A stretch of 60,940 nt of DNA, counting the filler. It is 8 parts of 8 records of this genome, joined end to end, with 100 filler letters (N's around TTAATTAATTAA, not from the genome) between each part and the next. Parts side by side here need not be neighbours in the genome. Positions count along the whole stretch, not along the records: positions 1 to 9,635 come from SRR31147125_81761; 7 more parts are not named here. One strand, given 5' to 3'. Under the pieces are notes generated by a model that saw only the letters and a list, made by a program, of their open reading frames with translations, made no database searches and was not told the DNA's origin. A program made the translations under genes and the position numbers. Shown piece after piece: positions 1 through 55,656 of this stretch (positions are counted from its first letter, which is position 1; the number at the start of each line of letters is the position of its first letter).

Positions 1-980
1 TCATCACTGCCTTTTGAAACGGCACCTTCCATCTCATCGACAATGGACTTGATATTGATATTCACATGATTTCCTGGATGGTAATATTCAAGTAATGAGA
101 CGAGAGATTCCTCCAGCTGTACTTTGACCTCATTGAAAATCGAAGACGCCCTTTCTCCCAATTCACTCTCAATATTTTTTGAGACGGCCAGTAAAATATC
201 GTTATATACGGTGATAATGGCCGAATATTCCTGGGAGCCGCCACCACCGGTTTTGTCACTGAGCTGAACCTCTTCGGTCTGTTCAATCAAACCGTATGAA
301 TTGAGTGAGAAGAAAATTTTGTATACGGCAAACTCATCATATCCACTTTTTGAGACAATATCACGAATGGTACGATCCCCATCAATCAAAGAGAGGATCC
401 GCCACTCATTGGCATTCAGTTTGATCTCTTCTTTATTTTGAACGTTGCCGGACATTTTGAACACCAGCTGATCACTTGTGATGACGGTGTTGAGCACGGA
501 CATCTCGTCAATTCGTCGGGATGCCTCGAGGATCAGCTTCATGGGGTTGAGTTGGGTCACCACCATCCCTTCGAGATTGAGTTTGATCTCCTTGTATTCA
601 AACATCCCTTTTTTCCACAACAACAAGCTGTAGAGAATCTCCTCCACTTGCTTGGTATTGTATTTTTTCAGCGTACTCTCCAGAACATATCCTTTATCCA
701 CCAATATCTTTCCAAGGGAGACTTTTTCTTCCCGGCCCAGCGAGAGGCACTTTTGAAGCTGTTCCGCCGAGATGATCCCATCCCGTCGCAAAATATATCC
801 CAGTCGCGATTCCTTTTGAGACCCGGTGGCATAAACAATGGTTCCCTCTTCGAAAAAGACTTTGCATTCATTGTCTCCGCTGGTGACTCTGAGCAGACCG
901 GTTTTTTGGTCATTACATAAAAGCTGGAGAATGCTTGTTAAAAAAAGTCCCTCAAAATCGCCCTGAAGATTCATTGCCAT
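1..980 (-). CDS. DUF4388/PATAN-domain protein, 3' end runs off the window (missed by the ORF track)
   Basis: Manual translation from ATG at 980: MAMNLQGDFEGLFLTSILQLLCNDQKTGLLRVTSGDNECKVFFEEGTIVYA...RLGYILRRDG...LGKILVDKG...LLWKKGMFEY...LILEASRRIDE, open to position 1. The pattern (G.L...L.QLL...KTG.L; W..G.F.Y; EA.RR.DE) is typical of DUF4388 proteins. Confidence 0.8.
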   Translation of the reverse strand, partial: MAMNLQGDFEGLFLTSILQLLCNDQKTGLLRVTSGDNECKVFFEEGTIVYATGSQKESRLGYILRRDGIISAEQLQKCLSLGREEKVSLGKILVDKGYVLESTLKKYNTKQVEEILYSLLLWKKGMFEYKEIKLNLEGMVVTQLNPMKLILEASRRIDEMSVLNTVITSDQLVFKMSGNVQNKEEIKLNANEWRILSLIDGDRTIRDIVSKSGYDEFAVYKIFFSLNSYGLIEQTEEVQLSDKTGGGGSQEYSAIITVYNDILLAVSKNIESELGERASSIFNEVKVQLEESLVSLLEYYHPGNHVNINIKSIVDEMEGAVSKGSD

Positions 981-1103
981 AGTCAATCTCTTTGGTTATA
1001 AGTGGATAATCGCTGCCATGACGGCTTGTTATTGCAATGCTTCATACTATAATAACATCGGTATATATGACAACCAGAAAATATATTTGCGCTGAGAGTT
1101 GCT

Positions 1104-2600
1104 ATGCTGAACACCCTTGTTGACTTCACCGATTGCTGCCGATCCTACGGACTTCGTGTCTCAACCAGCGAACTATTGGATTGCTACTCCCATCTCTCAT
1201 TGATCGATCCTCTGGATGAAACCACTTTCAGGACAGTGCTTCAATCCAATTTTGCAAAAAGTAGACGTGAGCAGAATCGTTTCAAAATGCTTTACACCCT
1301 TTTTTTTCATGAATCGTCACAGGCGCAAAACCAACCGAGGGGACTTTCAATCATCAAAAATGACGCTTCAATCTCTCCAGGAAACAAACGCAAACCTTGG
1401 TCCGAACAAGAGGAGAATATATCTGATGCGATCACATCCGTCATCGATCACTACCATCAACAATTTGATGATGGTGATGGCAATTCCGGTTCCACAATTG
1501 AGCGCAGTTTGTTGGATTTTATTCAGAGAAAACCGGGTTTCTTCCTTGAGCAAATTCATCAACTCAACACCATGGCCGTCCGGAAACAAACGCATTTCAA
1601 ATCAAACATGGATCAACTTTCCGGCAGATTGAGTGTCATGCTCACCATCAATCAAATGCGTCAGAAAATTCTTCAAATTGCCGGAAGTAATGATGATCAT
1701 TTAGACGTAGATGCAACATCCGAACGGCATAGTCATGGATTTAGGAATAGGCTCCAAAGTTTATTAAACCACCGATTGGATCAAGCCTATGCCCTTCTGA
1801 CAGATGAGCCTCGAGAAAATAATGAGGCGCTCATTGAAAATCAATCCGTTTTTTGGGGCCAAAAGATCTTGACTGAAAAACCCTTTTCATCTTTATCTCC
1901 CCTTGAAATCGTCCAGGTTCGAGAAGTGATGGATTCCTTTGCAAAGAAGTTGAAAAATCAGGCAGGGCGACGATTTGCCGTCAAAAGCAGAGGGCGGCTG
2001 AACATCAATAAAACCTTGCGGGAAGCCGGAAGATTCCAGGGGACGCCACTCAAGCTCTCATTTAAAGATAAGCCCCTGAACAAGGCTCGTTTGATTGTAC
2101 TTTGCGATGTTTCCGGATCGGTTTGGTCATCGGCCCGGTTTATGCTGAATATTCTCTACTCCCTTCAGGAGTGCTTTCATCGCATCAAAAGCTTTGTTTT
2201 TGTCTCTGGAATTCATGAAGTGACGGACTATTTCAATGATTTTGATGTCAACGATGCCATCGAAAAACTTCTCACAGCATCTCCCATCAACATCTCTGCC
2301 CCGACTGACTACGGCATGGTATTCCACTTATTCAATCGGGATCATCTCCATTTATTGGACCATAAAACCACTCTGATCATTATGGGAGACGGTCGCTCCA
2401 ACTATCTCAACCCCCAAGCCCATCTTTTGGGAGTGTTTCGTGAACGGTGTCGCAGGATCATCTGGCTTACACCGGAACCGGGAAATTTATGGAACAGTGG
2501 AGACAGTGAGCTTCACACCTACAAATCCCATTGCCACGAACTTCGCACCTGCATGAATATGAATCATTTACAGCAATTTATCCATGAGTTAGTGCTGTAA
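1104..2600 (+). CDS. VWA domain CoxE-like protein
   Basis: LCDVSGSV MIDAS motif, TDYG and IIMGDGRSNY, IIWLTPEP; N-terminus 'R..GLRVSTSE'. Confidence 0.85.
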   Translation: MLNTLVDFTDCCRSYGLRVSTSELLDCYSHLSLIDPLDETTFRTVLQSNFAKSRREQNRFKMLYTLFFHESSQAQNQPRGLSIIKNDASISPGNKRKPWSEQEENISDAITSVIDHYHQQFDDGDGNSGSTIERSLLDFIQRKPGFFLEQIHQLNTMAVRKQTHFKSNMDQLSGRLSVMLTINQMRQKILQIAGSNDDHLDVDATSERHSHGFRNRLQSLLNHRLDQAYALLTDEPRENNEALIENQSVFWGQKILTEKPFSSLSPLEIVQVREVMDSFAKKLKNQAGRRFAVKSRGRLNINKTLREAGRFQGTPLKLSFKDKPLNKARLIVLCDVSGSVWSSARFMLNILYSLQECFHRIKSFVFVSGIHEVTDYFNDFDVNDAIEKLLTASPINISAPTDYGMVFHLFNRDHLHLLDHKTTLIIMGDGRSNYLNPQAHLLGVFRERCRRIIWLTPEPGNLWNSGDSELHTYKSHCHELRTCMNMNHLQQFIHELVL

Positions 2601-2788
2601 TCATTCCCCTGTTGCTTTGTTCGCAGCGGACAACGGAATGGAGAGATTCCGTTTCAGAGCACCCGGCAGGCTTTACAAATTCATTTCGCTCATTATAATT
2701 TGTCAGATCCATTTGATCTTTCGAGTTCATACGGATCACTCAATCCCCTTAAAATCCAATATTAACCAACATAACGAAATGAGGTATC

Positions 2789-3445
2789 ATGCTTAAACTT
2801 GGAGAAAAAGGTGCTGTTCAGCAACGAGATAAAGAGACTTACGCCATTGCCCCCCATATCCCTTGCGGTGTTATCACGCCGGATCAGTTGCGAGTCATTG
2901 CAGATACGGCTGAAAAATATAACGCCGCTGCATTAAAAGTAACCAGTGCGGCCCGTATTGCCATTGTCGGACTGAAAGAAGAGGATATCGACAATGTCTG
3001 GAAAGATCTGGAGTTGAGTCTGGGGCATGCCGTCGGACTCTGCGTCAGAAGCATTAAAGCGTGCCCCGGTACCACCTTTTGCAAACTGGGTCAGCAGGAC
3101 AGCTTAGGGATGGGAATGAAACTGGATGAAATCTATCACGGCATGGAGCTTCCCAGCAAAACCAAAATGGGCGTTAGCGGTTGCACCAATCAATGCGCTG
3201 AAAACTGCATCAAAGATATTTCTCTGATGGGAAAAAAGAGCGGATGGACCTTGTGGGTCGGCGGTTGCGGTGCATCAAAACCGAGACTTGCCGATCTGTT
3301 TGCCCAAGAGCTGGATTCGGATGCAGCGTTGGATATGATCAACAAAGTGATTGAATACTACAAAGAAAACGCAAAGAAAGGGGAGCGTATGGGTAAGATG
3401 ATCGATCGTATCGGTCTCGATACCATGAAAGAAGCTCTTCTATAA
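2789..3445 (+). CDS. Small (218 aa) siroheme/[4Fe-4S] sulfite/nitrite reductase-family protein
   Basis: CPGTTFC and SGCTNQC ligand motifs; ferredoxin-like half domain; C-terminal GERMGKMIDRIG; RBS GAGG upstream. Confidence 0.85.
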   Translation: MLKLGEKGAVQQRDKETYAIAPHIPCGVITPDQLRVIADTAEKYNAAALKVTSAARIAIVGLKEEDIDNVWKDLELSLGHAVGLCVRSIKACPGTTFCKLGQQDSLGMGMKLDEIYHGMELPSKTKMGVSGCTNQCAENCIKDISLMGKKSGWTLWVGGCGASKPRLADLFAQELDSDAALDMINKVIEYYKENAKKGERMGKMIDRIGLDTMKEALL

Positions 3446-3469
3446 AAACACCGGTCCAAAACATGACAC

Positions 3470-3498
3470 GTAGAGACAAGGCCTTGCCTTGCCTCTAC
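3470..3498. repeat. GTAG-type REP-like palindrome
   Basis: GTAGAGACAAGG-CCTTG-CCTTGCCTCTAC: 12-bp stem with one mismatch, starting with GTAG, between convergent genes. Confidence 0.6.
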
Positions 3499-3619
3499 TC
3501 ACAATGAATATCCAACCCTGGGAAGCCGGAATCAAAGGTCTTTCCGATATTTTACCAAAAGCCAATACAACACGAAAATCGAAAACAAGTGCCTAAATCC
3601 ATCCATTGGAGCTCATGTT

Positions 3620-5904
3620 TTATTTTTTACCGGATACTTTTGCTTCCTCAAAGGAAGCCATCTCGCACATGATTTTACAGGCTGCCTCTGCCGTATCAAT
3701 GGTCAAGGCTGCGCCGGTTCCTTCACCCAACCGCATCCCGAAATCGATGACCGGTTTCAGTCCCATATGATCCAATGCCGTCTTCTGGGCCACCTCCACA
3801 GATTTATGACCGGAGATCAGATAGCCGCCGATGGCCGGAGAAATGAGATAGGCCAAAAGCCCTGCCGCAGTGGAGATTACCCCGTCCAGGACCACTGCCG
3901 CTTGCTTTGAGGCGGCAGCAAGAACGGCACCTGTAATCCCTGCAATCTCAAATCCTCCCACTTTCCGGAGCACATCCATACCGTCTGTTGAATCGGGCTG
4001 CTGAAAAGCCAGACTCTTTTCCAGCACTTCAATTTTGTGTTCCAGGCCTTTGTTGTCCACCCCGTCCCTCTTCCGGCCGCCTGTGCCGAAGAGATTCCGC
4101 AAATGACGCTGATGATGGCCGATGCAGATGTGGTATTTCCAATCCCCATTTCCCCGACGCCGACAATATCCAAGGGAGCGGATTCATGGCTTTCAAGGAA
4201 CACCTCCATCCCCCGACGTAAGGCCCGCCATCCCTCTTCATGGGTCATAGCCGGTTCAATGGCAAAGTTCCGGGTTCCTTTTCGAACTTTTTTATCGATC
4301 AGATCCGGATGGGAATCAAATTCTCCGTTCACGCCCATATCCACAATCTTCATGTCGATATGGTGATGCTTACAAAGCACATTGATGGCAGCGCCCCCAT
4401 TAAGGAAATTCTCCACCATCTGCCGGGTCACTTCCGACGGATAGGCGGAAACGCCTTCCTCCGTGATGCCGTGATCTCCTGCAAAAACAAAAAGCCCTTT
4501 TCTTCTGATGGCCGGAAACAGGCTCTGTTGAATCAGACTCATCTGCAGTGCCAGATCCTCGAGGGTGCCAAGGGCACCGAGGGGTTTGGTTTTATTGTCG
4601 ATTTTACTTTGCGCCGCCGGTTCCAGCGTTGAATCCACCGAGGGGATGGCTGCAATCACCCGGCGACACCATACCTCATCCTCAGAAACGGCTTGACCGG
4701 CCGATAGGATGTCGGATCTGAAAACGCCATGATCAACGTCTTCTTGCTCATACGGTTCCATGACGTTCATGACCTTCTCTTCGAAAGCATTTTCTTCGAG
4801 AGAATTTTCCACGTTACCGGCATCCATTGGATTTTGTTCCATTGCTTTGCCGGTGAAATCAAGAATGTACTTCAACGCATTTCCTGCCAGGATCTGCGGC
4901 ATCAGAGAGGCTGCTTTTTCCGGAAATACCACATCCTCGATCAACAGTTCAAGCAAGGGCATATTTCGCACCATAAAGGGCATGCCGTCCACCATATTTT
5001 GACGGGTCAGTCCGTAGGATCCGGTGACCTCCACCTCTTTATAATGGAGCAGGTTGATAAGATTGGTCTCAATATGCTCATTTTTGCTGAGCCCGCTGAA
5101 AAAGGAAATTTTGCCGCCTTTAGCCGCTTTCACAATCCCGAGATCAAATGCAATGGGATCTGCACAGGCATTGATGACGGCGTCGAACTCACCATCAACG
5201 GTATCTTTGACGCACTTGATCTTTGCGGCCATCAGAAACGGCTGAATTTTATCGATTTTCTCCGCCTGTTTTTCGATGACCAGCGGAATCGCTCCCCGAT
5301 CTTTCGCTGCCAGCGCCGCGATCAACCCGACTGTACCGCCCCCATAGATAATAACCCGCTGATGGGGTTGAACGGCCAGCTTGTCCAGCGCATTGAACAC
5401 GCATCCCACCGGCTCTGCAAAGCAGGCTATATGGGAGGATGCCATCAATGTATCGACACCTCTCAATTCCGAGTCAGAATCAATATCAAAATTTGCCCCC
5501 GAGTACGGATCCGATTTTCGCTTTTCCCAGTTATCCCCGGTCAGGGGAATCAATGAGGCATCGGGAAGCACGACATACTCTGCAAAACCGCCATTGTGAT
5601 GAAATCCGGTGATTTTCATCCCCTCGCACAGGTTTTCCCTTCCCTTGAGGCAGTAGTCGCAATGCCCGCAGCTTTTGCCGGGCCAGACCACGTAGATTTT
5701 CTCCGAATCATCCATCACCACCATCTCGTGCCCGGGTACGCGTGGGAAAACCAGATCCCGATGCCCCTGCTGCCACATTTTGGCATCGGTGCGACAAACC
5801 GCGCAATAGCGTACCCGCATCAAGGAAAAACCGGCCGGAGCCTGAGGAATTTCCTGTTGCTGCAGTTCCAGTTGTTCAAGTCCGGTCAATGTCAGTTGCT
5901 TCAT
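3620..5904 (-). CDS. cobT: Zn-dependent (MDR family) dehydrogenase fused to nicotinate-nucleotide:DMB phosphoribosyltransferase CobT; ~761 aa after repairing one frameshift
   Basis: N-half: CAVCRTD, GHE, CGHCDYC...C, GGGTVG. C-half: KTKPLGALG, FAGDHGI...GVSAYP, GEMGIGNTT, KVGGFEI, RLGEGTGAAL. ORFs 3877-5904 and 3620-4102 join as GRGTG-VDNKGL if one G is added to the run at 4060-4063. Confidence 0.85.
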
Positions 5905-5932
5905 GCCTCATCACCTAATTTATTAAAAATTT

Positions 5933-6148
5933 TCAAGAAGCGCTAAACGGCTCTTCTTTTAAGATCAGTTTATATATTTTCGGATTCATATCCGGTTTAT
6001 TCTTCAATGTCTGCACATGCGCTTGAACGGTTTCCAACTGGGTCATGGGAAAGACGGATGCCTTATCCAGTTTGCATCGAAGATACCTTCCCTCTTTCAC
6101 CCGAATATACCCATCACCTGTTTTGATGATCAGCAGTTCCGTCTTCAC
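5933..6148 (-). CDS. Small hypothetical protein (~71 aa; likely GTG start at 6148, ATG at 6172 possible)
   Basis: Open frame filling the gap between two co-oriented genes; G-rich RBS-like run upstream of the GTG. Confidence 0.6.
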   Translation of the reverse strand: MKTELLIIKTGDGYIRVKEGRYLRCKLDKASVFPMTQLETVQAHVQTLKNKPDMNPKIYKLILKEEPFSAS

Positions 6149-6254
6149 TTTTAAACGCCCCCTGTTTCTCATTATTGAAGGAATCGGTCCATACTTTGAC
6201 GGTGTCGGATAAAACCTGTCCCGCCTTTGTGTCTTTGGAAACAGGCCAAAATTG

Positions 6255-7370
6255 TTATCCCATCAAGCGTGCCAATTTTTTCAGGCCTTTTTCAGGATCT
6301 TGATTCTGACGTTTAACCCAAGCTTCCAACGTATCCATTGCCTGACCGCCGTCAACTGATTTTGTGGCCTTTTCAACGCCGGCCTCAATACTATCGACGG
6401 CATCGGCCACATAGTAGATGAGCGAGGCGTTGAGGATCGCGGCATCCTCCCTCGGCCCTTTCTCATGTCCTCGAATCAGGGAGACAAATCGTGCCGGTTC
6501 TTTTGAGATATCCGAATCCGGAGCGATCTCCGAGCAATCATGTCGTTCCAATCCAACCGATTTGGGGGTAAAGGAATACGATTCGATACTTCCGTCCTGT
6601 TTCAGTTCCGCACACCAGGTGGTACCGCAGACAGACGCCTCATCCATGCCTTTGTCCGTTCCATCGATGGCACCGTGGAGGACAACGGCCCGCTCAAACC
6701 CGATGGCTTTCATCACATGAACCACCGGCAAAATCATCTCCTTGGAATAGACGCCGCGAACAGCCCTTCTCGGCATGGCAGGATTGGCAAGTGATGCGGC
6801 AATATTGAGAGTGGAACCAAAATAGATCTGAGACAAAATTCTGCCCAGGGCCATGGGATGAACCAGTGGGCTCATGCCGTTAAACAGCCCGATGTTGGCC
6901 TTTTCAATACTGGCAGCGACATTTTCCACGGAACATTCCACATCCACGCCAAGGGCTTCAGCCATATCCACGGTGCCGCATTTCGAAGTGATGGCCCGTG
7001 CACCGTGTCTTGCCATTTTGATCCCCCCTGAGGCGGCAATGAGGGATGCCGCCGTACTGATGTTGAAGGTCTTGAAGGTATCCATGCCGGTACCGCTGTT
7101 TTCAACCACCGGGGCATTGCTGTTCAGCCGGACCTTGTTGGTATCCAGCTCATAGATCGCTTCCCAGGCACCGGCAACTTCATCTGCGGTTTCTCCTTTG
7201 GCATTAAGAGCGGCCAGAAAGGCACCTTGTTGCATATCGGTCACTTCGTTATTCAATACTTGTAAAAAGGCTCTTTCAGCTTCTTCCCGGGTCAATGCCT
7301 CTTTCCTGATCAACCGGGTGATCACAGCACCAAATGCTCTATTTTTTTCTAAATCCATATTATTCTCCAA
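6255..7370 (-). CDS. Anthranilate phosphoribosyltransferase-like (glycosyltransferase family 3) protein with atypical motifs
   Basis: N-terminal helical domain (GAFLAAL..KGET.DE), GTGMD..TFNIST, ARHGAR, LANP, GMDE. Confidence 0.85.
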   Translation of the reverse strand: MENNMDLEKNRAFGAVITRLIRKEALTREEAERAFLQVLNNEVTDMQQGAFLAALNAKGETADEVAGAWEAIYELDTNKVRLNSNAPVVENSGTGMDTFKTFNISTAASLIAASGGIKMARHGARAITSKCGTVDMAEALGVDVECSVENVAASIEKANIGLFNGMSPLVHPMALGRILSQIYFGSTLNIAASLANPAMPRRAVRGVYSKEMILPVVHVMKAIGFERAVVLHGAIDGTDKGMDEASVCGTTWCAELKQDGSIESYSFTPKSVGLERHDCSEIAPDSDISKEPARFVSLIRGHEKGPREDAAILNASLIYYVADAVDSIEAGVEKATKSVDGGQAMDTLEAWVKRQNQDPEKGLKKLARLMG

Positions 7371-7618
7371 AATGATTCCATGTCTAATTCAGAGCCGAAA
7401 AGTTACCTCCTGGCCCCATAAAATGTCAATGATTTTGAGTAATTTTCGACATCACAATGATAAAATCACTTTTCAGAAACAATTAAAGGATTTGCATGTT
7501 TCAGCCAAAATGGATATGTCTCTCTTTCGATAACGGATAACCCAACGATGAGCCCTTAGCTCAGTTTCATCCCCGGTTGCCGGATTTTCAAACAATAGAT
7601 TTCAGGAGTAACCATGCA

Positions 7619-8556
7619 ATGGCCGATATGAGCACCCAACAATTAATACTTGAGGATCAATCCATGAGAGACGGACTCCAGATGGAGTCTCGGATTTTTC
7701 TTTAGAGGAAAAGATCAAATGTTTTGATTTACTTCAAAATGCCGGGATTAAAAGAATTCAGGTGGGATCATTTGTCCACCCTAAAATTGTCCCCCAGATG
7801 GCAGATACCGATGAGTTAATCAAAACAATCGGTAAACAGGCGACTGCGACGGTTACGGCATTGATTCTAAACAACAAGGGGTTGGATCGAGCCCTTGAAT
7901 GCGGCGTCCCTCATGTGAGTATGTCCGTCTCCGTCAGTGATGCACACAGCAGAAAAAATACAAACAAACCAGCCGAGGATGCACAGGAAGAAATGGTTGG
8001 ACTTATCCGAAAGGCGCTTGAATCAAACTTGGAAGTCCGGGCGGAACTGCAGTGTGTTTTTGGATGTATTTATGAAGAGGACATAGATGAAAATACAGTA
8101 TTGAGCGCCGCTGAAAAAATGCTCAAGACCGGTGTGACGGAGATCAGCTTAGCCGATACAACCGGTCAGGCGACTCCCATCGCCATTCGAAATATGGTGC
8201 ATCGCTTTCAAGATGAATTTCCGGAAACCGGAATGTCACTTCACCTCCACGATACCCGAGGACTAGGTCTTGCGAACCTGTTTGCCGGTTATGAAGCCGG
8301 CGCCCGAAGTTTTGATGTTTGCGCAGGGGGACTTGGAGGCTGTCCATTTCTTAAAGGTGCCGCCGGTAATGTGCCAACGGAGGATGCGATCAACATGCTG
8401 GAAACCATGGGGGTCGATACGGGAATTGATCTTGAAAAAGTGTGCAACGCGGTCGATTATTACGAAACCTGTTTGGAACGACGGCTTCCCGGAAAAATGA
8501 AGCAAGTGCTTGCTCTCAGCCCCGCATGTAGTTTTAAAAAAAGTGCGCGCAATTAA
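7619..8556 (+). CDS. Hydroxymethylglutaryl-CoA lyase-like DRE-TIM enzyme (one frameshift near 7695-7699)
   Basis: An upstream frame carries EDQSMRDGLQ and joins ORF 7762 (GSFVHPK, LADTTG, HLHDTRG, GGLGGCPF, GNVPTED) by adding one T to a T5 run. Start at 7619 or 7628. Confidence 0.85.
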
Positions 8557-8598
8557 CCCTTGTATGTTGAAAAACATAAGGGTTAATACAGGTGATCA

Positions 8599-9507
8599 AT
8601 GTTTTCCCAACTGCTTTCCATTTTTGTAACTGTTGTATGTCCGGTTTTTACATTGGTGTTGCTGGCTTATTTACTGGGCCCTCGACTCGACATCCAGTAT
8701 CGATCTCTGACAAGAACAGCGTATTATCTATTGATTCCAGCCTTTATTTTCAACGTACTCAGCCGAATAGAAATTGACCTGTCCACTGCCGGAAGGATGA
8801 TTGTCGGCATCGGTGTCATTTACACAGCGACTGGTATTCTCGGATGGATCACTGCCCGGATGCTCGGTTTCGGGCGAGAAACGGCCGCAGCTTTTCTGAT
8901 GACTTGTATTTTCGGGAACGTTGGTAATTACGGACTTGCACTGGCACGTTTCAGGCTTGGTGATACTGCCATGGAAAGTGCTACGGTTTACATGGTAACG
9001 ATCAACACGCTCTCTTTTACGTTAAGTGTTCTGACTGCCGGCTGGCTCCGAAAAGGGGGATTCGGGGCCTTGAAAAACTTGATAAAAACGCCCGGTGTCG
9101 TCGTTCTGCCTATCGCGTTGCTGTTTCCATTATCCGGAACGGTTCCACCGATAATGGTTCAACGTATCACCGGCCTGCTGGGGGATGCCATGATTCCAAT
9201 GATGTTACTCATTTTGGGACTGCAACTTCGAGAGGCCGGACACCTCGAGTGGGGGTGGAAAACCTTTACGGCATGTGGAATCCGGCTCATCGTCGGGCCG
9301 GCCCTGGCATTTCTTCTGATCCCCCTGATCGGCCTTTCTGAAATCCAGTCCTCAGCCGGAATCCTCCAGGCATCCATGCCGTCGGCGGTGCTGACCGCCA
9401 TCATTGCCATGGAGCATAATGTGGTACCGACCTTTGTGATATCCGTCGTTTTTTTCAGTACAATGCTCAGTCTGATCAGCCTGACCATGGTAATGGGAAT
9501 GCTTTAG
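8599..9507 (+). CDS. AEC (auxin efflux carrier) family transporter
   Basis: ~10 hydrophobic segments; FGNVGNYG, IPMMLLILG, QASMPSA motifs. Confidence 0.85.
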   Translation: MFSQLLSIFVTVVCPVFTLVLLAYLLGPRLDIQYRSLTRTAYYLLIPAFIFNVLSRIEIDLSTAGRMIVGIGVIYTATGILGWITARMLGFGRETAAAFLMTCIFGNVGNYGLALARFRLGDTAMESATVYMVTINTLSFTLSVLTAGWLRKGGFGALKNLIKTPGVVVLPIALLFPLSGTVPPIMVQRITGLLGDAMIPMMLLILGLQLREAGHLEWGWKTFTACGIRLIVGPALAFLLIPLIGLSEIQSSAGILQASMPSAVLTAIIAMEHNVVPTFVISVVFFSTMLSLISLTMVMGML

Positions 9508-9635
9508 TTACTTATCCCGCATTGTCGTGATTTTGGGGAAGGAGAATCAAAAACCTCATTATGGTTCCGGCTTGTCCAAAGGTAAATAATGGGAATATCT
9601 TTCCAATGCAGGTAAAACAGTATTTGATCTTTTTT

Positions 9636-9735
9636 NNNNNNNNNNNNNNNNNNNNNNNNNNNNNNNNNNNNNNNNNNNNTTAATTAATTAANNNNNNNNN
9701 NNNNNNNNNNNNNNNNNNNNNNNNNNNNNNNNNNN
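9636..9735. other. Artificial contig spacer
   Basis: N run + TTAATTAATTAA (stops in all six frames) + N run. Confidence 0.98.
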
Positions 9736-10159
9736 CCCTGTCCCGTTGCCGGGATACACTGCGCCTGCTCGATCTCGACTGTCCGGTCACCTTTGACGAG
9801 GGGGTAAGGGAGATCGATTTCGGCCTGTGGGAAGGGCTCAGCTTCAACCAGGTTCAGCAAAAATACCCGGACCAGGCAGATCGCTGGGCAACACAACACG
9901 ACGATTTCACCTTCCCCGGCGGTGCGCATATCGGGACATTCAACCTCACCATCCAGCAATGGTTTGACGTACTGCTTCAGACGGGGCATAATCGGGTCCT
10001 CATTGTTGCCCACGGCGGCGTGCTGCGCACCGGACTTCTCCACCTTCTCGGTGGTGGGGGGACAGCGGATTCGGGCTGAACCTCAGCGAGGCGGCGATAA
10101 CGAAAGTATCACTGCACAAGGGGTATCCGTATCTCGAAAAGTTTAACTGCAGGGGATGA
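9736..10159 (+). CDS. cobC: Alpha-ribazole phosphatase / histidine phosphatase, 5'-truncated, frameshift near 10050-10061
   Basis: Manual translation: LSRCRDT...REIDFGLWEG...FPGG...LIVAHGGVLR; a second frame ends ...YLEKFNCRG* with ATGA overlap onto cobU. Confidence 0.75.
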
Positions 10160-10698
10160 GCATGGCGAATATCGTGCTGGTGACCGGAGGTGCCAGAAGC
10201 GGGAAAAGCGCGTATGCGCTTGCCCGCGCTGAGGAGATTGAGGGCAGGAGATGTTTTGTCGCCACCTGTGAGGTCCTCGATACGGAGATGGCCGAACGGG
10301 TTGAAAAACACTGTCGGGAGAGGGACAGCCGCCTGTGGGAGACGGTGGAGGAACCGCTCACAATTGCGTCTCTGGTTGAAGGCGGAGACTACGATATTTA
10401 CCTTATCGATTGCCTGACGCTCTGGGTCAATAATGTCATGGCCGCGTACGAGAGCCGGGGAGAGTCCTGCGGAGAGAAGCAGATAGCCAGCGAAATCACA
10501 GCGCTAGTCGAACGTGCGGGGAACCTGCAGGGGACGGTGCTGATCGTGTCTAACGAAGTCGGCATGGGGATCGTACCGGAAAATGCACTGGCAAGAAAAT
10601 ACCGTGATCTCGTCGGCGTATGCAACAGACTGCTTGGCGAGGCCGCATCCGAGGTCGTGTTGGTGAGCTGCGGTATTCCCCTTCATATAAAGCAATAA
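10156..10698 (+). CDS. cobU: Adenosylcobinamide kinase / cobinamide-phosphate guanylyltransferase
   Basis: GGARSGKS, EMAERVEKH, WETVEEP, IDCLTLWV, VSNEVGMGIVP. Confidence 0.95.
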   Translation: MSMANIVLVTGGARSGKSAYALARAEEIEGRRCFVATCEVLDTEMAERVEKHCRERDSRLWETVEEPLTIASLVEGGDYDIYLIDCLTLWVNNVMAAYESRGESCGEKQIASEITALVERAGNLQGTVLIVSNEVGMGIVPENALARKYRDLVGVCNRLLGEAASEVVLVSCGIPLHIKQ

Positions 10699-10721
10699 GC
10701 AAGGCAAAAAAGAGATTTCGA

Positions 10722-11789
10722 ATGAATCTGCTAGAACAAACATGTAAGGAAATCTTTCCCCAGGACAGTGACTATCGGGATCGTGCGCAAGCCCGTCTCG
10801 ATCAGTTGTGCATTCCGCATTGGGCGCTTGGTGATCTCATGGATCTCGGTCTCGATCTCGCCGGCATAACCCGGAGTATGAACCCGGAACTTGGTCGGAA
10901 GGCAATCGTTACGATGGCCGGTGATCACGGTGTCGTGGCTGAGGGCGTTTCAAAATATCCGCCTGAGGTAACGCCTCAGATGGTGCACAATATCGTGTCC
11001 GGTGGCGCCGGTATCAATGCCCTGGCAAACCAGGCGGGTGCAGATGTCTATGTCGTCGACCTCGGGGTTGCTTTTGAATTTGAAAACCTTGCCGATAACC
11101 GGTTCTTCATTGACAGAAAGATAGCCCACGGGACGAACAATATCGCCGTGGGACCGGCGATGAGTATCGCGAATGCGCGCAAAGCTGTTGAGGCCGGTAT
11201 AGAGATAGGCGTTAGACTGAGTGATTCATACGATATTTTCGGTACCGGTGACATGGGTATCGGCAACACCACACCCAGTACCGCGATTGCCGCTGTTATT
11301 ACCGGAAAATCGGTTGCCGAGTTGACGGGCAGGGGAACAGGACTCAATGATGACCAACTCGTCAGTAAGGTTGCCGTCATAGAAAAAATACTGGAAGTCA
11401 ATAAACCGGATGCGAAAAACGGACTCGACATACTGTCTAAGGTCGGTGGGTATGAGATCGGTGGTATTGCCGGTCTGATTCTGGGTGCTGCGTCGTGCCG
11501 GAAACCGGTTATTGTCGACGGGTTTATATCCACGGCCGGGGCCTTGATCGCCAATGTTCTCGAGCCCTTTGTCAGGGATTATATAATCTGCGCACACCGA
11601 TCGGTGGAACCCGGGCATGTATTCATGCAGGAAGTGCTCGGCTGCTCCCGCCCGCTGCTCGACCTTAATCTCAGGCTCGGAGAGGGGACAGGCGCAGCAC
11701 TGGCCATGAATGTAGTAGAGGCTTCCAAACACGTTCTGACCGAGGTCGCCACGTTCGAGGAAGCAGCGGTTGCAGGGGCCGACAAGTAA
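10722..11789 (+). CDS. cobT: Nicotinate-nucleotide:DMB phosphoribosyltransferase
   Basis: MAGDHGV..EGVS.YP, GDMGIGNTT, KVGGYEIGG, LRLGEGTGAAL; start placed at MNLLEQ. Confidence 0.95.
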   Translation: MNLLEQTCKEIFPQDSDYRDRAQARLDQLCIPHWALGDLMDLGLDLAGITRSMNPELGRKAIVTMAGDHGVVAEGVSKYPPEVTPQMVHNIVSGGAGINALANQAGADVYVVDLGVAFEFENLADNRFFIDRKIAHGTNNIAVGPAMSIANARKAVEAGIEIGVRLSDSYDIFGTGDMGIGNTTPSTAIAAVITGKSVAELTGRGTGLNDDQLVSKVAVIEKILEVNKPDAKNGLDILSKVGGYEIGGIAGLILGAASCRKPVIVDGFISTAGALIANVLEPFVRDYIICAHRSVEPGHVFMQEVLGCSRPLLDLNLRLGEGTGAALAMNVVEASKHVLTEVATFEEAAVAGADK

Positions 11790-11869
11790 CAGGACAGGTT
11801 ACGGCAAACGGATATGTCATGGGTGGGATAAACAGCTCGCATGGTTTGAAAACGGCACTCTCCAGGCCC

Positions 11870-12613
11870 ATGCATTCATTTTCCGCCGCGCTGAGATTCC
11901 TCACCATTTTCCCGGGCTTAACGCCGGCAAAAGATGACTCCGAATATTTCTCCGGAGCCGCATACTACATTACCATTGTCGGTTTGGTGTGCGGAGCTGT
12001 GATCGGCGGCTCCGCACACCTGCTGGCACAGAAGGGGCCGCTGATGCTTGTCGCGGTCGCCGCTGCCGTATCCCTTTCGCTGGTCTCCGGTTTCCTTCAT
12101 CTCGACGGTCTGGCCGATACCGCAGACGGCTTTATGAGCTGCAGGGACCGGGAGCGGAGTCTTGAGATCATGAAAGACAGCCGCATCGGGGTGATGGGGG
12201 CGACTGCGCTTGTCGTGGTGCTGCTGTTCAAGGCGGCGGCGCTGGTATCGCTTCCCGCAGATAGTCTGGCGGCGATGCTGGTCGCAGCGCCCGTGGCCGG
12301 CCGCACGGGTATCATCCTGATGATGTCGTATCTCCCGTATGCGAGGTCGGAGAGTGGACTTGGCACCCTGTTCCTCGAGGACGGTTCTGCGCACAGGGTT
12401 TCGATCATGTCAGTCATCTTGATGGTGGTTATCCTTGCGGTTATGGTTCCTCAGAAGGCGGTGCTGCTGCTTGTCGTGTTCGGCATCACGCTGTTTTTAC
12501 TCTGTCTGCTCTGCATGAAAAGGATCGGCGGCTACACCGGCGACACCCTCGGCGCTGCCTGCGAACTGGTTGAAACGGCTGTGCTGGTTGGCGGTGCGTT
12601 CGTTCTTTACTAA
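11870..12613 (+). CDS. cobS: Adenosylcobinamide-GDP ribazoletransferase (cobalamin synthase)
   Basis: ALRFLT, GFLHLDGLADTADG, IMKDSRIG, GGYTGDTLGA; start may be 11819 or 11870. Confidence 0.95.
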   Translation: MHSFSAALRFLTIFPGLTPAKDDSEYFSGAAYYITIVGLVCGAVIGGSAHLLAQKGPLMLVAVAAAVSLSLVSGFLHLDGLADTADGFMSCRDRERSLEIMKDSRIGVMGATALVVVLLFKAAALVSLPADSLAAMLVAAPVAGRTGIILMMSYLPYARSESGLGTLFLEDGSAHRVSIMSVILMVVILAVMVPQKAVLLLVVFGITLFLLCLLCMKRIGGYTGDTLGAACELVETAVLVGGAFVLY

Positions 12614-12635
12614 CCTGATGAATTGATGATAGAAG

Positions 12636-15236
12636 ATGTCGAAAAACGGACAGAGCTTGATTCCCGGTAAGCAGATCGGCGCCCGTGAACATGGCGGCAA
12701 TATCCACAAGTTCAACTCGCTGGAAAATTCCCTGCAGATGCTTGATTTCAGCGCCAATATCAACCCCCTTGGTCCACCGGCCTGGCTGAGATCTTCGATC
12801 AACCGCAATCTGAATCTCGTCAGTCATTATCCGGACCCTGAATGCACTGAGTTTATCGAAGCAATTTCCTCGCGCTACAACGTCGATAAGGAATTCGTGA
12901 TTCCGGCCAACGGGTCAACTGAACTGCTGCACCTGATTCCGCGAATCGTGCCAGCCTCCCGCGTCTTCGTACCGGTTCCATGCTATATCGATTATATCGA
13001 TGTCTTCGCCAGACACGGGTTCGACGTCACCTTGCTTTACACGCTGAAGGACGATGACTTTTCTGTTTCATTTGCGCAGATTTCTGCTGAGTTGAAAGGA
13101 GGGGATCTGGTCATTTTCGGCAATCCCGTCAATCCATCCGGTACGGTGATGGCTGACGAGAATATCCTGAAACTGGCCGGGAATCATCCGGAAACCCTGT
13201 TCGTTATCGACGAGGCGTTTCACGATTTTGTCACACCTTTTGCTACCGTTGGCGGCAAGCTCGACAATATCATCACCCTCAATTCCCTTACCAAGTTTTT
13301 CGGGGTACCCGGGCTCAGAGTAGGATTTGGTATTTTCCCACTATCCTATGTTCAGAAGATAAAGGAGCACCTGCCCCAGTGGAGTGTCAACACGTTGGCG
13401 CAGTGTGTGGGCATGGAGGCTCTCGCTGATGATGACTATTGCCGACGTACCGTCAGCGAATGCATCAGGCTGCGCACGCACCTCAAGAAAGATCTTGAGA
13501 ATATCAGTCGGATTACGGTGTTCGATTCCCATGCGAATTATCTGTTGCTCAAGCTTGGACATGGGCTGAGTGGGCAGCAGGTGTATCGCGACCTGCTCGA
13601 GTATGGGATCATTATCCGGAGGTGCGGCAATTACCGGGGACTCGGGGATTCCTATATCCGTGTTGCGGTAAAATCTGAACAGGAAAACAGGCGGCTCGTT
13701 GGAGCGCTCAGGCGGTTACTGCAGACATCCAGATCTACCGGGAAGAAGATTCACAGAGCCGCTGCGCTCATGGTCCAGGGGACCTCATCCAACGCCGGTA
13801 AATCGATCCTGAGCGCTGCTTTGTGCCGCATTTTTTATCAGGACGGCTACCGAGTCTGCCCATTCAAGGCCCAGAACATGTCTCTCAACTCCCATGTCAC
13901 TGCTGACGGCGGTGAAATGGGGAGAGCCCAGGTCGTTCAGGCACAGGCCGCAAAACTCGAGCCGGACTGGAGGATGAACCCGGTCCTGCTCAAACCCAAC
14001 AGCGATACCGGCAGCCAGGTAATCGTCAACGGCCGGCCGGTGAGAAACATGGATGTACGCCAGTATCACGCCTACAAGGATGAAGCGTGGAAGGCGGTGA
14101 CCGGCTGCTTTGATCAATTGCAAGTGGAATACGATGTAATCGTCCTGGAAGGGGCGGGGTCGCCGGGCGAGGTCAACCTGAAATCCCACGATATCGTCAA
14201 CATGAAAATGGCCCGTTACGCCGATGCACCGGTCCTGCTTGTCGGGGATATTGATCGGGGAGGAGTGTATGCCTCCTTTGCCGGCATCATGGATGTTCTC
14301 GAGGAGTGGGAGCGCACCCTGATTGCCGGATTCATCGTCAACAAATTCAGGGGGGATAAATCGCTGCTCGAAGATGCCCACCGGTTCGTCAAAGATCACA
14401 CGGGGCGCGACGTACTCGGCGTTGTACCGTATATCATGGACATGTCAATTCCCCAGGAAGATTCCGTGTCCCTTCGTGAGGGGTTCTACCGGGATCGGGG
14501 GACCGGGGCAGACCAGGTGGAGATCGTCGTGATTGACCTGCCGCATATCTCCAACTTTACCGATATTGACCCGCTCTATTTTGAACCGGACGTAAACATC
14601 AGGTTCGTCTCAGACCCCCTGCTGATCGGCCGGCCTGACTGTATTATACTGCCCGGCTCAAAAAATGTAGTTGGAGACCTGAAATATCTGCTTGACCGGG
14701 GGCTTGATGCTGCGATCGTCGATTGCCACAGACAGGGGACAGAGGTCGTTGGAGTCTGCGGTGGATACCAGATGCTCGGCGAAATGATTCGTGATCCACA
14801 CCAGATCGAGACGAAAGAAGGGTATATCAAAGGGATCGGGCTTTTGGGTGTCGAGACGGTGATGGCCTGGGAAAAAACCCTGACCAAACAGAGGGGAACA
14901 CATATCGGATCGGGACACGCTATCGTCGGGTACGAGATCCATCACGGGAAGACCGATGGCAGTATAACGCCGGTGCTTATATTTGAAAACGGTGAACATT
15001 GCGGCTGCAGGACTGACGACGGTTCCGTGTGGGGCGCCTATCTGCATGGCATTTTCGATGAGGATTCCTTCAGGCGCTGGTTCCTCGATCGTTTGAGAAC
15101 GGAAAAAGATCTGGAACCGCTGGGCCATGGGGGAGCCACCTACAACGTCGATCGGAGTCTGGACGAACTTGCCGACCTCGTCAGGAGCAGTGTCGATATG
15201 ACCTCCATCTACCGGTTACTGAATCGTGACGCCTGA
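12636..15236 (+). CDS. cobQ: Fused L-threonine-O-3-phosphate decarboxylase (CobD) and cobyric acid synthase (CobQ/CbiP)
   Basis: N-half HGG, DFSANINPLG, DEAF, SLTKFFGVPGLR (PLP Lys). C-half QGTSSNAGKS, PFKAQNM, EGAGSP, GVCGGYQMLG, YLHGIF. Confidence 0.93.
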   Translation: MSKNGQSLIPGKQIGAREHGGNIHKFNSLENSLQMLDFSANINPLGPPAWLRSSINRNLNLVSHYPDPECTEFIEAISSRYNVDKEFVIPANGSTELLHLIPRIVPASRVFVPVPCYIDYIDVFARHGFDVTLLYTLKDDDFSVSFAQISAELKGGDLVIFGNPVNPSGTVMADENILKLAGNHPETLFVIDEAFHDFVTPFATVGGKLDNIITLNSLTKFFGVPGLRVGFGIFPLSYVQKIKEHLPQWSVNTLAQCVGMEALADDDYCRRTVSECIRLRTHLKKDLENISRITVFDSHANYLLLKLGHGLSGQQVYRDLLEYGIIIRRCGNYRGLGDSYIRVAVKSEQENRRLVGALRRLLQTSRSTGKKIHRAAALMVQGTSSNAGKSILSAALCRIFYQDGYRVCPFKAQNMSLNSHVTADGGEMGRAQVVQAQAAKLEPDWRMNPVLLKPNSDTGSQVIVNGRPVRNMDVRQYHAYKDEAWKAVTGCFDQLQVEYDVIVLEGAGSPGEVNLKSHDIVNMKMARYADAPVLLVGDIDRGGVYASFAGIMDVLEEWERTLIAGFIVNKFRGDKSLLEDAHRFVKDHTGRDVLGVVPYIMDMSIPQEDSVSLREGFYRDRGTGADQVEIVVIDLPHISNFTDIDPLYFEPDVNIRFVSDPLLIGRPDCIILPGSKNVVGDLKYLLDRGLDAAIVDCHRQGTEVVGVCGGYQMLGEMIRDPHQIETKEGYIKGIGLLGVETVMAWEKTLTKQRGTHIGSGHAIVGYEIHHGKTDGSITPVLIFENGEHCGCRTDDGSVWGAYLHGIFDEDSFRRWFLDRLRTEKDLEPLGHGGATYNVDRSLDELADLVRSSVDMTSIYRLLNRDA

Positions 15237-15932
15237 ACTGATTTTCTACCTGCTGCTCTCATTCATCCTGCTGGCGGATATGCTGTGCGGTGACCCGCGC
15301 ATGATCCCCCACCCGGTTCGCTTTATCGGGATGTTGTGCAGCAGGTTCGAGTCGTTGACCAGGAACAGCTTTCAATGCATTTCACCCCGGGGGCAGGGAG
15401 TCTGTACCTTTTGTCTGGTTATCGGCGGTTCTCTACTCAGTGGTTGGGTGTTTATTCGCCTGCTCGGGATCGTGTCGATACATGCTGCCTCTGTCGGTGC
15501 CGTACTCATCTGTTATTTCTGTGTTGCCGCCGGGGATCTTGTGAAACACTCCACTGCGGTACGGACCTGCCTCGATCTGGGGCACGTTGAGGAGGCTCGC
15601 AAAGCCGTCGCAATGATGGTGGGGAGGGATACGGAAAATCTCGATGAGGCGGAGATTGCGCGAGCGTGCATAGAATCGGTCGCCGAGAATCTGGTGGATG
15701 GAATCACCGCCCCGCTGTTCTGGGCCCTCGTTGCTGCGTTGGCTGCGCCAGTTTTTGGTACCAGCCTCATCGTATCCGCAGCGTTCGGGTATATCGGGTA
15801 TAAGGCGGTTAATACGATGGATTCGATGTTCGGCTACAAGAACGAACGCTATGGTGAGTTTGGCTGGTTTGCCGCTCGCGTTGATGATGTCTTTAATTTC
15901 ATTCCGGCCCGGCTCAGTGGGGTCTGTGTCGT
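15226..15932 (+). CDS. cbiB: Adenosylcobinamide-phosphate synthase, 3'-truncated
   Basis: GDP...HPV, MVGRDT, ESVAENLVDG, YKAVNTMDSMFGYKNERY, NFIPARL. Confidence 0.93.
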
Positions 15933-16032
15933 NNNNNNNNNNNNNNNNNNNNNNNNNNNNNNNNNNNNNNNNNNNNTTAATTAATTAANNNNNNNNNNNN
16001 NNNNNNNNNNNNNNNNNNNNNNNNNNNNNNNN
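15933..16032. other. Artificial contig spacer
   Basis: N run + TTAATTAATTAA + N run. Confidence 0.98.
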
Positions 16033-16075
16033 AAAAAAACTCTTATGATTTGCGTTATTTTTGAAAGGAGAAAAA

Positions 16076-16995
16076 ATGACAATACCTGAAATTATGGAAA
16101 GACGTATGGCATTCTCATTTGAGGTTTTTCCACCTAAGACAGACGCCGGTATGGAGAAGCTGACCGGTCAGGACGGCGTTCTTGACAAGCTGTGTACGCT
16201 GAAGCCCGATTATATTTCCTGCACGTATGGCGCCGGCGGCGGCAACGTGGGTAAAAACCTTGAGGTTTTGGATGCCGTCAAAAAAAGACAGTCGGGATTA
16301 CTCACTTCACCTGCATAGGAAATACCAGACAGGGTATCAAGGAGCAGCTTCAAACCTATCTGGAACATGGGATCAATAATATCCTCGCGCTTCGCGGAGA
16401 CCTGCCCTTTGGATGGACGGGCACAGGCGGCGATTTGCAATATGCCACCGAACTGGTTAAGTTTATCCGAGATGAATTCGATGATAAGTTTACAATTGCC
16501 GTGGCCGGCTCGCCGGAAGGCCACATCCAATGCCGGAGCCTTGAAGCCGACATTTCTTTCCTGAAGCAAAAACAGGACGAAGGCGCCGACTTTATTATGA
16601 CGCAGCTTTGCTGGGATATGGACCAGTTTCGTTATTGGATGGATGCCATCCGTATGGCCGGCATTACCATGCCCGTCGATGTGGGCATTATGCCGGTACT
16701 CGACGCTGCGGCAACGATCAACATGGCGCTGTCAAGAAACGGGTGCGTTATGCCCCGGGCGCTCGCCGAGCTTATCTCCAAGTACTGGATTTTCCCCAAT
16801 CCGTTCGCACCAAACGAAGCCGAAGACTCAATCGCTGCAAAGAAAGCGGCTTTTAAAGAAGCTGGCATTGAGTATACAATCCGTCTAATCGACGAGTATC
16901 GTGTTTGCGGGATTGCCGGTATCCACTTGTACGCACTGAACAAATATGACGACGTCGCCCGCCTTGTGAAAGAATCAGGCATCAAGGATCTGTAA
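16076..16995 (+). CDS. metF: Methylenetetrahydrofolate reductase (one frameshift at A7 run 16280-16286)
   Basis: [16 protein letters not shown], then after the shift [31 protein letters not shown]. Confidence 0.9.
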
Positions 16996-21530: not shown

Positions 21531-21630
21531 NNNNNNNNNNNNNNNNNNNNNNNNNNNNNNNNNNNNNNNNNNNNTTAATTAATTAANNNNNNNNNNNNNN
21601 NNNNNNNNNNNNNNNNNNNNNNNNNNNNNN
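21531..21630. other. Artificial contig spacer
   Basis: N run + TTAATTAATTAA + N run. Confidence 0.98.
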
Positions 21631-27529: not shown

Positions 27530-27629
27530 NNNNNNNNNNNNNNNNNNNNNNNNNNNNNNNNNNNNNNNNNNNNTTAATTAATTAANNNNNNNNNNNNNNN
27601 NNNNNNNNNNNNNNNNNNNNNNNNNNNNN
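27530..27629. other. Artificial contig spacer
   Basis: N run + TTAATTAATTAA + N run. Confidence 0.98.
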
Positions 27630-38784: not shown

Positions 38785-38884
38785 NNNNNNNNNNNNNNNN
38801 NNNNNNNNNNNNNNNNNNNNNNNNNNNNTTAATTAATTAANNNNNNNNNNNNNNNNNNNNNNNNNNNNNNNNNNNNNNNNNNNN
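38785..38884. other. Artificial contig spacer
   Basis: N run + TTAATTAATTAA + N run. Confidence 0.98.
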
Positions 38885-47374: not shown

Positions 47375-47474
47375 NNNNNNNNNNNNNNNNNNNNNNNNNN
47401 NNNNNNNNNNNNNNNNNNTTAATTAATTAANNNNNNNNNNNNNNNNNNNNNNNNNNNNNNNNNNNNNNNNNNNN
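47375..47474. other. Artificial contig spacer
   Basis: N run + TTAATTAATTAA + N run. Confidence 0.98.
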
Positions 47475-55556: not shown

Positions 55557-55656
55557 NNNNNNNNNNNNNNNNNNNNNNNNNNNNNNNNNNNNNNNNNNNN
55601 TTAATTAATTAANNNNNNNNNNNNNNNNNNNNNNNNNNNNNNNNNNNNNNNNNNNN
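55557..55656. other. Artificial contig spacer
   Basis: N run + TTAATTAATTAA + N run. Confidence 0.98.

Follow-up and report, generated by a model that had tools for sequence, protein, structure and literature searches.

Why should a phosphoribosyltransferase of the TrpD family sit beside a zinc dehydrogenase fused to CobT, with no tryptophan genes alongside? The question is raised by a short run of genes in a 60,940-nucleotide stretch of DNA (hereafter the window), in which eight parts of eight records are joined end to end. The run, which we call the module, consists of a gene for a TrpD-like paralog, a small open reading frame (ORF) and a gene for a fusion of a medium-chain dehydrogenase/reductase (MDR) with CobT. 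It lies wholly within piece 1 of the window (positions 1-9635, record SRR31147125_81761), where it occupies 3620-7370 of the minus strand. We believe that the three genes very probably form one operon of a widespread, B12-regulated accessory module in the lower-ligand (CobT) branch of cobamide nucleotide-loop assembly. The module is found in many anaerobes, and it probably performs a step in the making of the lower B12 portion that has not been described before. The initial annotation had proposed an uncharacterised cobamide branch at this locus, and the proposal is supported by the co-conservation of the TrpD-like and dehydrogenase genes, by cobalamin riboswitches at most of the loci scanned, and by a CobT that is fused or adjacent.

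The arrangement first described for the locus holds up (Table 1). The genes are co-oriented and closely spaced: the small ORF is 28 nt from the fusion and 82 nt from the TrpD-like gene, the latter gap becoming the 106 nt originally given when the small ORF is counted from the GTG at 6148. Seven linkers split the window into at least eight pieces, and since the module lies inside the first of these, the statement that it stands on one contig is true for the module. A domain scan of the piece 1 genes found no trp genes among its neighbours. Two different phosphoribosyltransferase folds are indeed present, PF02885 with PF00591 in the TrpD-like protein and PF02277 in the fusion.

The TrpD-like protein and the dehydrogenase domain each served as a query against 201 genomes sampled evenly from the same order. 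For the TrpD-like query, we refer to matches of 58-78% identity as tier 1 and to those of 46-54%, from about 16 further genomes, as tier 2, while canonical TrpDs match at 33-37%. A scan of loci by CobT-domain pattern gave ordinary cobT genes in 72/80 cases, and the carriers were found by the genome search instead. All of the full-length fusion loci with upstream DNA (5/5) repeat the gene order of the window, from TrpD-like gene through small ORF to fusion; a sixth fusion locus, L003, stands outside this count with upstream DNA that is too short. Of the 19 tier-1 loci taken from the 201-genome sample by way of the dehydrogenase domain, 18 have the TrpD-like gene next to the dehydrogenase, the exception being genome G042, where the module is split between L098 and L131 and the TrpD-like gene and small ORF are found elsewhere in the genome. 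The dehydrogenase domain itself was matched in 20/201 genomes, in frames of 703-785 amino acids in 14 of them and of 334-374 amino acids in 6. The unfused tier-1 form reads riboswitch, TrpD-like gene, (small ORF) and dehydrogenase, without a CobT domain, and two such loci run directly into a ribosomal RNA operon.

The pair is also found well outside tier 1. In 11/13 tier-2 loci, an MDR dehydrogenase (28-35% identical) is immediately upstream of the TrpD-like gene, and the tier-2 query matches protein clusters named Dissulfuribacterales, Methanosarcinales, Halobacteriota and Dehalococcoides mccartyi, the last of these names being given by its source to a cluster of 54% identity. Among 401 sampled Chloroflexota genomes, seven carry the paralog, all of them 1.4-1.9 Mb in size, and the order riboswitch, dehydrogenase, TrpD-like gene is the same in 6/6 Chloroflexota loci. 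In both groups the dehydrogenase frame ends a few bases from the TrpD-like start or overlaps it, and a stand-alone cobT follows the pair in 7/13 tier-2 loci and 2/6 Chloroflexota loci. Beyond the pair, two Chloroflexota loci encode CobT, CobS, a CobC-like phosphatase and CobU, one of them in the order CbiZ-CbiB-CobD, riboswitch, ADH-TrpDlike-CobT-CobS-CobC-like-CobU, where ADH is the alcohol dehydrogenase. The locus of one relative is present in the RNA libraries of 6 studies as assembled contigs, which do not prove a transcript.

Recurrence in dozens of loci places this arrangement far beyond chance. Two bacterial phyla have kept the TrpD-like gene together with the dehydrogenase, and this pair is the invariant core of the module, with CobT fused, adjacent or elsewhere and the small protein optional. 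The initial annotation had treated all three genes as the conserved unit, and it had pointed to a lack of co-conservation in other genomes as the outcome that would speak against it. What we see is adjacency of the pair in two phyla (18/19, 11/13 and 6/6 loci), so that part of the claim stands; the part that concerns the small ORF and the fused CobT has to be narrowed, as the former is optional and the latter is joined to the dehydrogenase in some members of the family only.

The initial annotation had also called for the neighbours of the fusion and the cobalamin riboswitches to be tabulated, and when this was done the pair recurred and RF00174 was found directly upstream in 22/27 module loci. 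These comprise 9/13 tier-1 loci, with the window among the 13, 7/8 tier-2 loci and 6/6 Chloroflexota loci; the scan covered loci other than L099-L109 and L127-L130. Separately, two loci (L121:9983-12305 and L125:9601-11927) have a second cobalamin riboswitch directly after the module cobT, which controls a TonB-dependent receptor.

The TrpD-like protein shares the two-domain fold of canonical TrpD (65.7 bits for PF02885 and 171.4 bits for PF00591 in Pfam), passes the NCBIfam model TIGR01245 (255.3 bits, cut-off 199.05), retains TFNIST and GMDE, and has 30-35% identity with canonical copies as well as with TrpDs of solved structure. However, in relatives of the window organism, where we made this check, 5/5 carrier genomes have a second TrpD that scores 356-421 bits against TIGR01245, where the module copy reaches 228-251 bits. 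We scanned the flanks of the second TrpD in four carriers and found trp genes in each: in three there is a trpG-trpD-trpC run, and in the fourth only trpC follows trpD; in some carriers the run includes trpE or trpF. Among the loci examined, TrpD-like copies were never inside a trp operon. Thus carriers do keep a canonical trpD, as the initial annotation expected, and the contrary outcome, in which the TrpD-like gene is the only trpD, did not occur in any of the five relatives.

The sequence of the paralog also departs from that of canonical TrpD. The motifs GTGGD, KHGN(R/K), G-x-R-(S/T)-x-F-N and LGPLxNP are absent, and in their place we found GTGMD, RHGAR, FGSTLN and AASLANP. The changes KHGN to RHGA, GIR(S/T) to FGS, LGP to AAS and GTGGD to GTGMD are invariant or nearly so in 22 paralogs. 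In addition, the paralogs have TSxCGTVD where canonical copies have SSKCGSAD, and FGSTLNIAASLANP where canonical copies have GIRSIFNMLGPLTNP, together with a two-residue insertion (LFNGMSP), another insertion ahead of GMDE, and the new invariant arginines R177 and R205. The paralog clade as a whole lacks acceptor-site residues that are common to canonical TrpDs. A tree built from 37 sequences puts all 31 module copies in a single clade, with a support of 0.894, and a long branch sets the canonical TrpDs apart from them. The module copies differ from canonical TrpD in their clade and motifs, in lying outside trp operons in genomes that also have a canonical trpD, and, at most loci scanned, in following a cobalamin riboswitch. 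The Chloroflexota copies nest among tier 2, which suggests transfer between phyla.

The same tree places a copy from L124 as sister to the module clade (support 0.995). This sister paralog is 46% identical, with the motifs GTGAD and RHAAR, and is part of a cluster (L124:5107-11099) that encodes an AsnC regulator, TrpC-like and TrpF-like proteins, a RibD_C reductase, the TrpD-like protein and a molybdopterin oxidoreductase, without trpE, trpG, trpB or trpA. The cluster may be another unknown pathway that joins phosphoribosyl pyrophosphate (PRPP) to an amine.

The partner of the TrpD-like protein is an MDR zinc dehydrogenase, and in the window it is fused to CobT. PF08240 scores 56.6 bits in the fusion, above the Pfam cut-off. 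The C-terminal half is a full-length CobT domain (PF02277, TIGR03160) with the motifs GEMGIGNT, GRGTG and LGEGTGA, and it covers PF02277 positions 1-204 in the main ORF and 190-329 in the overlapping ORF at 3620-4102. It differs from an ordinary CobT in being MDR-fused and, in the window, frameshifted, and it is 40-45% identical to the stand-alone CobT of the window. Proteins with the fusion make up at least 120 clusters, most of which bear the name Desulfobacteraceae, and intact orthologues have 700-780 amino acids. Stand-alone orthologues of the dehydrogenase, of 320-374 amino acids, were found as well. We also checked ten unusually long relatives of the dehydrogenase. Seven are ADH::CobT fusions or fragments thereof, in one Pfam recognises a CobT domain alone, and the other two are dehydrogenases whose N-terminus is extended; no dehydrogenase-TrpD fusion was found among these ten.

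The dehydrogenase looks active, judging from residues that are invariant in 21 fusions: C34, H59, E60 and E164 (the catalytic zinc set), C79, C82, C85 and C93 (the structural zinc cysteines), the glycines of G188xG190xxG193, and E211, which follows the second Rossmann strand. As a rule of thumb, an acidic residue at that place indicates a preference for NAD over NADP. The zinc set (Cys/His/Glu, with or without a further Glu), the structural zinc cysteines and the Rossmann motif with its acidic residue are shared with the MDR polyol and threonine dehydrogenases, such as Tdh, sorbitol dehydrogenase and galactitol-1-phosphate dehydrogenase. In contrast, the named equivalogs stay far below their cut-offs, and none of the characterised MDR subfamilies (Tdh, IolM, Ahr, idonate dehydrogenase and others) was reached, the best scores being 56-75 bits against cut-offs of 283-470. 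The best PDB match (E 9e-18) covers mainly the N-terminal domain. The dehydrogenase family instead has about 100 representative clusters of its own, with 104 representatives at E <= 1e-30 in a scan of 1.84 billion representatives.

Table 1. Positions of the module, its parts and the joints of the window, counted along the whole window
Feature	Position	Strand	Basis or remark
TrpD-family phosphoribosyltransferase paralog, 371 amino acids, first module gene	6255..7370	-	PF02885 + PF00591
Small conserved ORF, 79 amino acids; core of ~66 amino acids from near GTG 6148	5933..6172	-	tier-1 accessory gene
Fusion as a whole	3620-5904	-	MDR Zn-dehydrogenase::CobT, split over two ORFs
Fusion, main ORF, 675 amino acids	3877-5904	-	PF08240, PF00107, PF02277 profile 1-204
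MDR Zn-dehydrogenase domain, residues 1 to ~355	4840..5904	-	PF08240, PF00107
Variable linker between dehydrogenase and CobT, approximate boundaries	4645..4839	-	alignments A1 and A4 without consensus
CobT (DBI_PRT) domain, split over two frames	3620..4644	-	PF02277
G4 homopolymer, frame-shift point, one base short relative to in-frame relatives	4060..4063	-	direct sequence reading
Upstream intergenic region, 390 nt	7371..7761	-	without recognisable cobalamin riboswitch
Linkers between pieces	9636-9735, 15933-16032, 21531-21630, 27530-27629, 38785-38884, 47375-47474, 55557-55656		N44-TTAATTAATTAA-N44

The small protein between the two core genes belongs to no Pfam or NCBIfam family, and its atlas neighbours are only its own unnamed clusters. 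It has a conserved core, ELLIIKxGxxYIRVKD…DKASVFP, and is predicted with confidence (pLDDT 91) to fold as four strands, a helix and a strand; a fold search gave no PDB match (best E 0.17). Orthologues lie between the TrpD-like gene and the dehydrogenase in 5/5 assessable fusion loci and 13/19 tier-1 loci of the sample, and none was detected in the other 6/19 tier-1 loci, in 13/13 tier-2 loci or in 6/6 Chloroflexota loci.

How does the pair relate to the known enzymes of the lower-ligand branch? PF02277 was found in 25/25 carrier genomes tested, so the pair works beside CobT and not instead of it, and we rejected the idea that it replaces CobT. In 3/5 tier-1 genomes checked, a second ThiC-family gene adjoins the stand-alone cobT, and from its position we read it as bzaF-like; one such gene, compared with NCBIfam, scores as ThiC and falls under the BzaB cut-off. 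With a dehydrogenase that has its own CobT and a ThiC-family gene beside cobT, these genomes would have two units of the type "base enzyme plus CobT". The likeness to the bza operons (bzaF or bzaAB with cobT) and to arsAB is therefore one of layout, that is, an enzyme set clustered with its own CobT homologue and under B12 control. The module differs in having neither a ThiC-like radical-SAM enzyme nor methyltransferases, and its chemistry would start from PRPP and an amine and not from aminoimidazole ribotide. Searches with Pfam and NCBIfam found no radical-SAM domain of the BzaF/BzaAB ThiC-like kind in the three module genes; BluB was not searched for.

A search of the accessible literature, part of it directed at Dehalococcoides, found no description of a TrpD-like protein paired with a dehydrogenase, and a search for 5-methylbenzimidazolyl together with Desulfobacterium found no paper. 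A Chlorobium paper names trpD and a dehydrogenase in the legend of a figure on low-coverage genome regions, some of which hold cobalamin genes (PMC8620254).

What might the module do? We tentatively favour a base-supply line for CobT, because no other reading gives work to all three activities and also accounts for the fusion. The TrpD paralog would use PRPP to N-ribosylate a planar amine or N-heterocycle, not anthranilate. The NAD-type zinc dehydrogenase, of the polyol/threonine-dehydrogenase kind, would then oxidise a secondary alcohol, either on the chain that comes from ribose or on the bound ring, and this oxidation would form or release a heterocyclic base. The fused or adjacent CobT would turn the base and nicotinate mononucleotide (NaMN) into an alpha-ribotide for CobS to attach to the corrinoid, with the small protein as a possible lineage-specific accessory subunit. 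A more ambitious form of this scheme, which we think improbable, is a third lower-ligand route to a benzimidazole-type base that would depend on neither O2 nor radical SAM. Here the TrpD paralog would ribosylate an ortho-diamino (or similar) arene with PRPP, the neighbouring amine would close on the C1' of the sugar, and the NAD-dependent dehydrogenase would oxidise the adduct, after which the remainder of the sugar would be split off. C1' would stay behind and become C2 in the imidazole ring so formed, and the base would pass straight to the fused CobT. Under such a route, base auxotrophs would salvage an environmental precursor rather than the finished base.

Several points weigh against our interpretation of the module, beginning with the window copy itself. 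Its fusion is not in one intact frame, as it is shifted at the G4 run within the CobT domain, where six relatives encode GRGTG(V/I/M)D in frame. A second shift is found in the MTHFR gene (16049-16995), which is in two frames around an A7 run (16280-16286). Given that both sites are homopolymers and that the same fault occurs in MTHFR, both frameshifts can be attributed to assembly, and that of the fusion is probably an assembly error. We noted that a low-coverage relative (L008:10001-12015) also has its fusion seemingly in two frames, with a match to the out-of-frame tail of the window; this split is probably a separate assembly error. The ADH_zinc_N domain (PF00107) of the window fusion scores 29.9 bits, just below its cut-off of 31.8. 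No riboswitch precedes the module in the window or in its closest relatives, L001 and L097, and the other two loci of this kind are the distant L096 and L122. There was no Rfam match at the gathering threshold in the whole window and no cobalamin riboswitch match at E <= 10 at 7300-7800, and a permissive search upstream of the window and L001 modules gave chance matches only.

The remaining points concern the chemistry. The GTGGD, KHGN, GxR and LGP residues are presumed to act in binding anthranilate and PRPP, and the lost Asn and Arg to be those that contact anthranilate in structural work on TrpD. Likewise, we infer the substrate of the TrpD-like enzyme, the direction of the dehydrogenase reaction and the order of the steps. 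A BzaF-like ThiC paralog (under 600 bits) was counted by hand in about 11/35 carriers and about 55/201 genomes overall, using a rough split of PF01964 at 600 bits in a sample where many genomes are incomplete and only 122/201 have any ThiC. Since the gene is about as common in carriers as overall, the module is not a simple replacement for Bza. We had considered that it replaces BzaF, and five tier-2 genomes fit this, in that they have no full cobT besides that of the module and a single ThiC-family gene was detected in each; we dropped the idea because there is no anticorrelation in the 201-genome sample. The main difficulty for the base-supply line is that the pair occurs in small-genome Chloroflexota, with one of the matched clusters named after Dehalococcoides mccartyi. 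That organism needs exogenous dimethylbenzimidazole. It is also a corrinoid auxotroph, according to a paper that does not mention the pair (PMC4285132). Taken together, these requirements make a complete de novo pathway to the base unlikely there, and an imported or unknown precursor would be needed.

The other explanations that we considered each leave one partner of the module unexplained. One that we regard as unlikely is that the TrpD paralog regenerates the ribosyl donor of CobT, which is NaMN or an analogue, by joining PRPP to the pyridine that is released, so that the net reaction is PRPP plus base to alpha-ribotide plus pyrophosphate and the fusion channels the donor to CobT. In its favour, the module is tied to CobT, which all 25 carriers have, and not to any base synthase, and its presence is independent of a BzaF-like gene; donor supply would suit an organism that imports its base, and the invariant R177 and R205 could bind a carboxylate. 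However, the canonical carboxylate-binding arginine is lost in the paralog, the dehydrogenase, which is the most constant partner, is given no role, and NadC (PF01729) is present in 5/5 Chloroflexota carriers, so NaMN is already made. Rather less likely, in our judgement, is a capture of scarce benzimidazole or another base, which the paralog would trap with PRPP as a beta-ribotide, the dehydrogenase helping to convert it to the alpha form for CobS by transient oxidation of a ribose hydroxyl. An acceptor site that is hydrophobic and without carboxylate binders, a dehydrogenase of the NAD-type sugar-alcohol kind, induction of the pair by the riboswitch at B12 shortage and its occurrence in a lineage of corrinoid auxotrophs all agree with capture. 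But it would make CobT dispensable, and CobT is never missing from the carriers tested and is often fused to the dehydrogenase; in addition, an MDR enzyme that anomerises its substrate would, to our knowledge, be without precedent.

The link to CobT could also be only operonic, with the pair serving some other loop step, for example the formation of the aminopropanol-phosphate linker from threonine, or a B12-independent bypass. B12 riboswitches often control B12-independent isozymes, cobD adjoins the module in several loci, and the best named relatives of the dehydrogenase include threonine 3-dehydrogenase, although this match is far under the cut-off. We consider such a role improbable, given that a PRPP transferase has no obvious part in linker synthesis and that a CobT fusion in so many clusters argues for shared metabolites. 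It is very improbable that nothing special is happening, that is, that a second anthranilate phosphoribosyltransferase and an unrelated alcohol dehydrogenase came by chance to lie near cobT and that the window fusion is a decaying pseudogene. The TIGR01245 score, the name TrpD that databases give to the paralog and the frameshift of the window fusion would all fit. Maintenance of the pair across phyla under riboswitch control largely refutes this explanation, the acceptor-site changes are clade-wide, and the frameshift is in a homopolymer, with one of the same kind in MTHFR.

Outside the module, its neighbours on piece 1 encode DUF4388, VWA/CoxE, a small NirSir protein, HMGL-like and Mem_trans domains (Pfam). 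The order DUF4388, VWA/CoxE, NirSir (218 amino acids) is kept between the window (3-3445), L001:12415-15876 and L097:4614-8417, at 55-91% identity. In the clade nearest to the window, whose modules have no riboswitch, shikimate genes (aroQ, a type II dehydroquinase, and/or aroK, shikimate kinase) are found just upstream of the TrpD-like gene at L001:7045-8176, L097:13016-13459 and L131:8563-10877, and none is found upstream of the window module. A scan for promoters and terminators upstream of the module gave sites that are no commoner than in shuffled sequence. The window also has a canonical cobU-cobT-cobS operon (10156-12613), but this belongs to piece 2, and because a linker separates the two pieces the cob genes of piece 2 are not true neighbours of the module. 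The full run there, cobU-cobT-cobS-cobD::cobQ-cbiB, spans 10156-15984, and the next linker cuts cbiB. Within it, an 866-amino-acid protein (12636-15236) joins a class I/II aminotransferase, a CobD-like threonine-phosphate decarboxylase, to CobQ. We also noted that the G+C content goes from about 0.40 to 0.55-0.61 and back at the joints at 27.6 kb and 38.8 kb, so the pieces of the window may derive from more than one organism.

The lower ligand that a microbe attaches determines which of its neighbours can use its cobamide, and the known sources of the base (BluB, Bza and uptake) leave many anaerobes unexplained. Annotations everywhere give the two-enzyme core described here the names "anthranilate phosphoribosyltransferase", "alcohol dehydrogenase" or simply "CobT". 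The core belongs to the B12 regulon in sulfate reducers and in small-genome Chloroflexota, the nearest named relative of the latter being the dechlorinator Dehalococcoides mccartyi. If the module does supply or capture a base, or feeds CobT in some other way, a missing step would be added to the textbook pathway and a widespread misannotation of TrpD would be corrected. It would also offer a way to test how consortia used in bioremediation depend on corrinoids.

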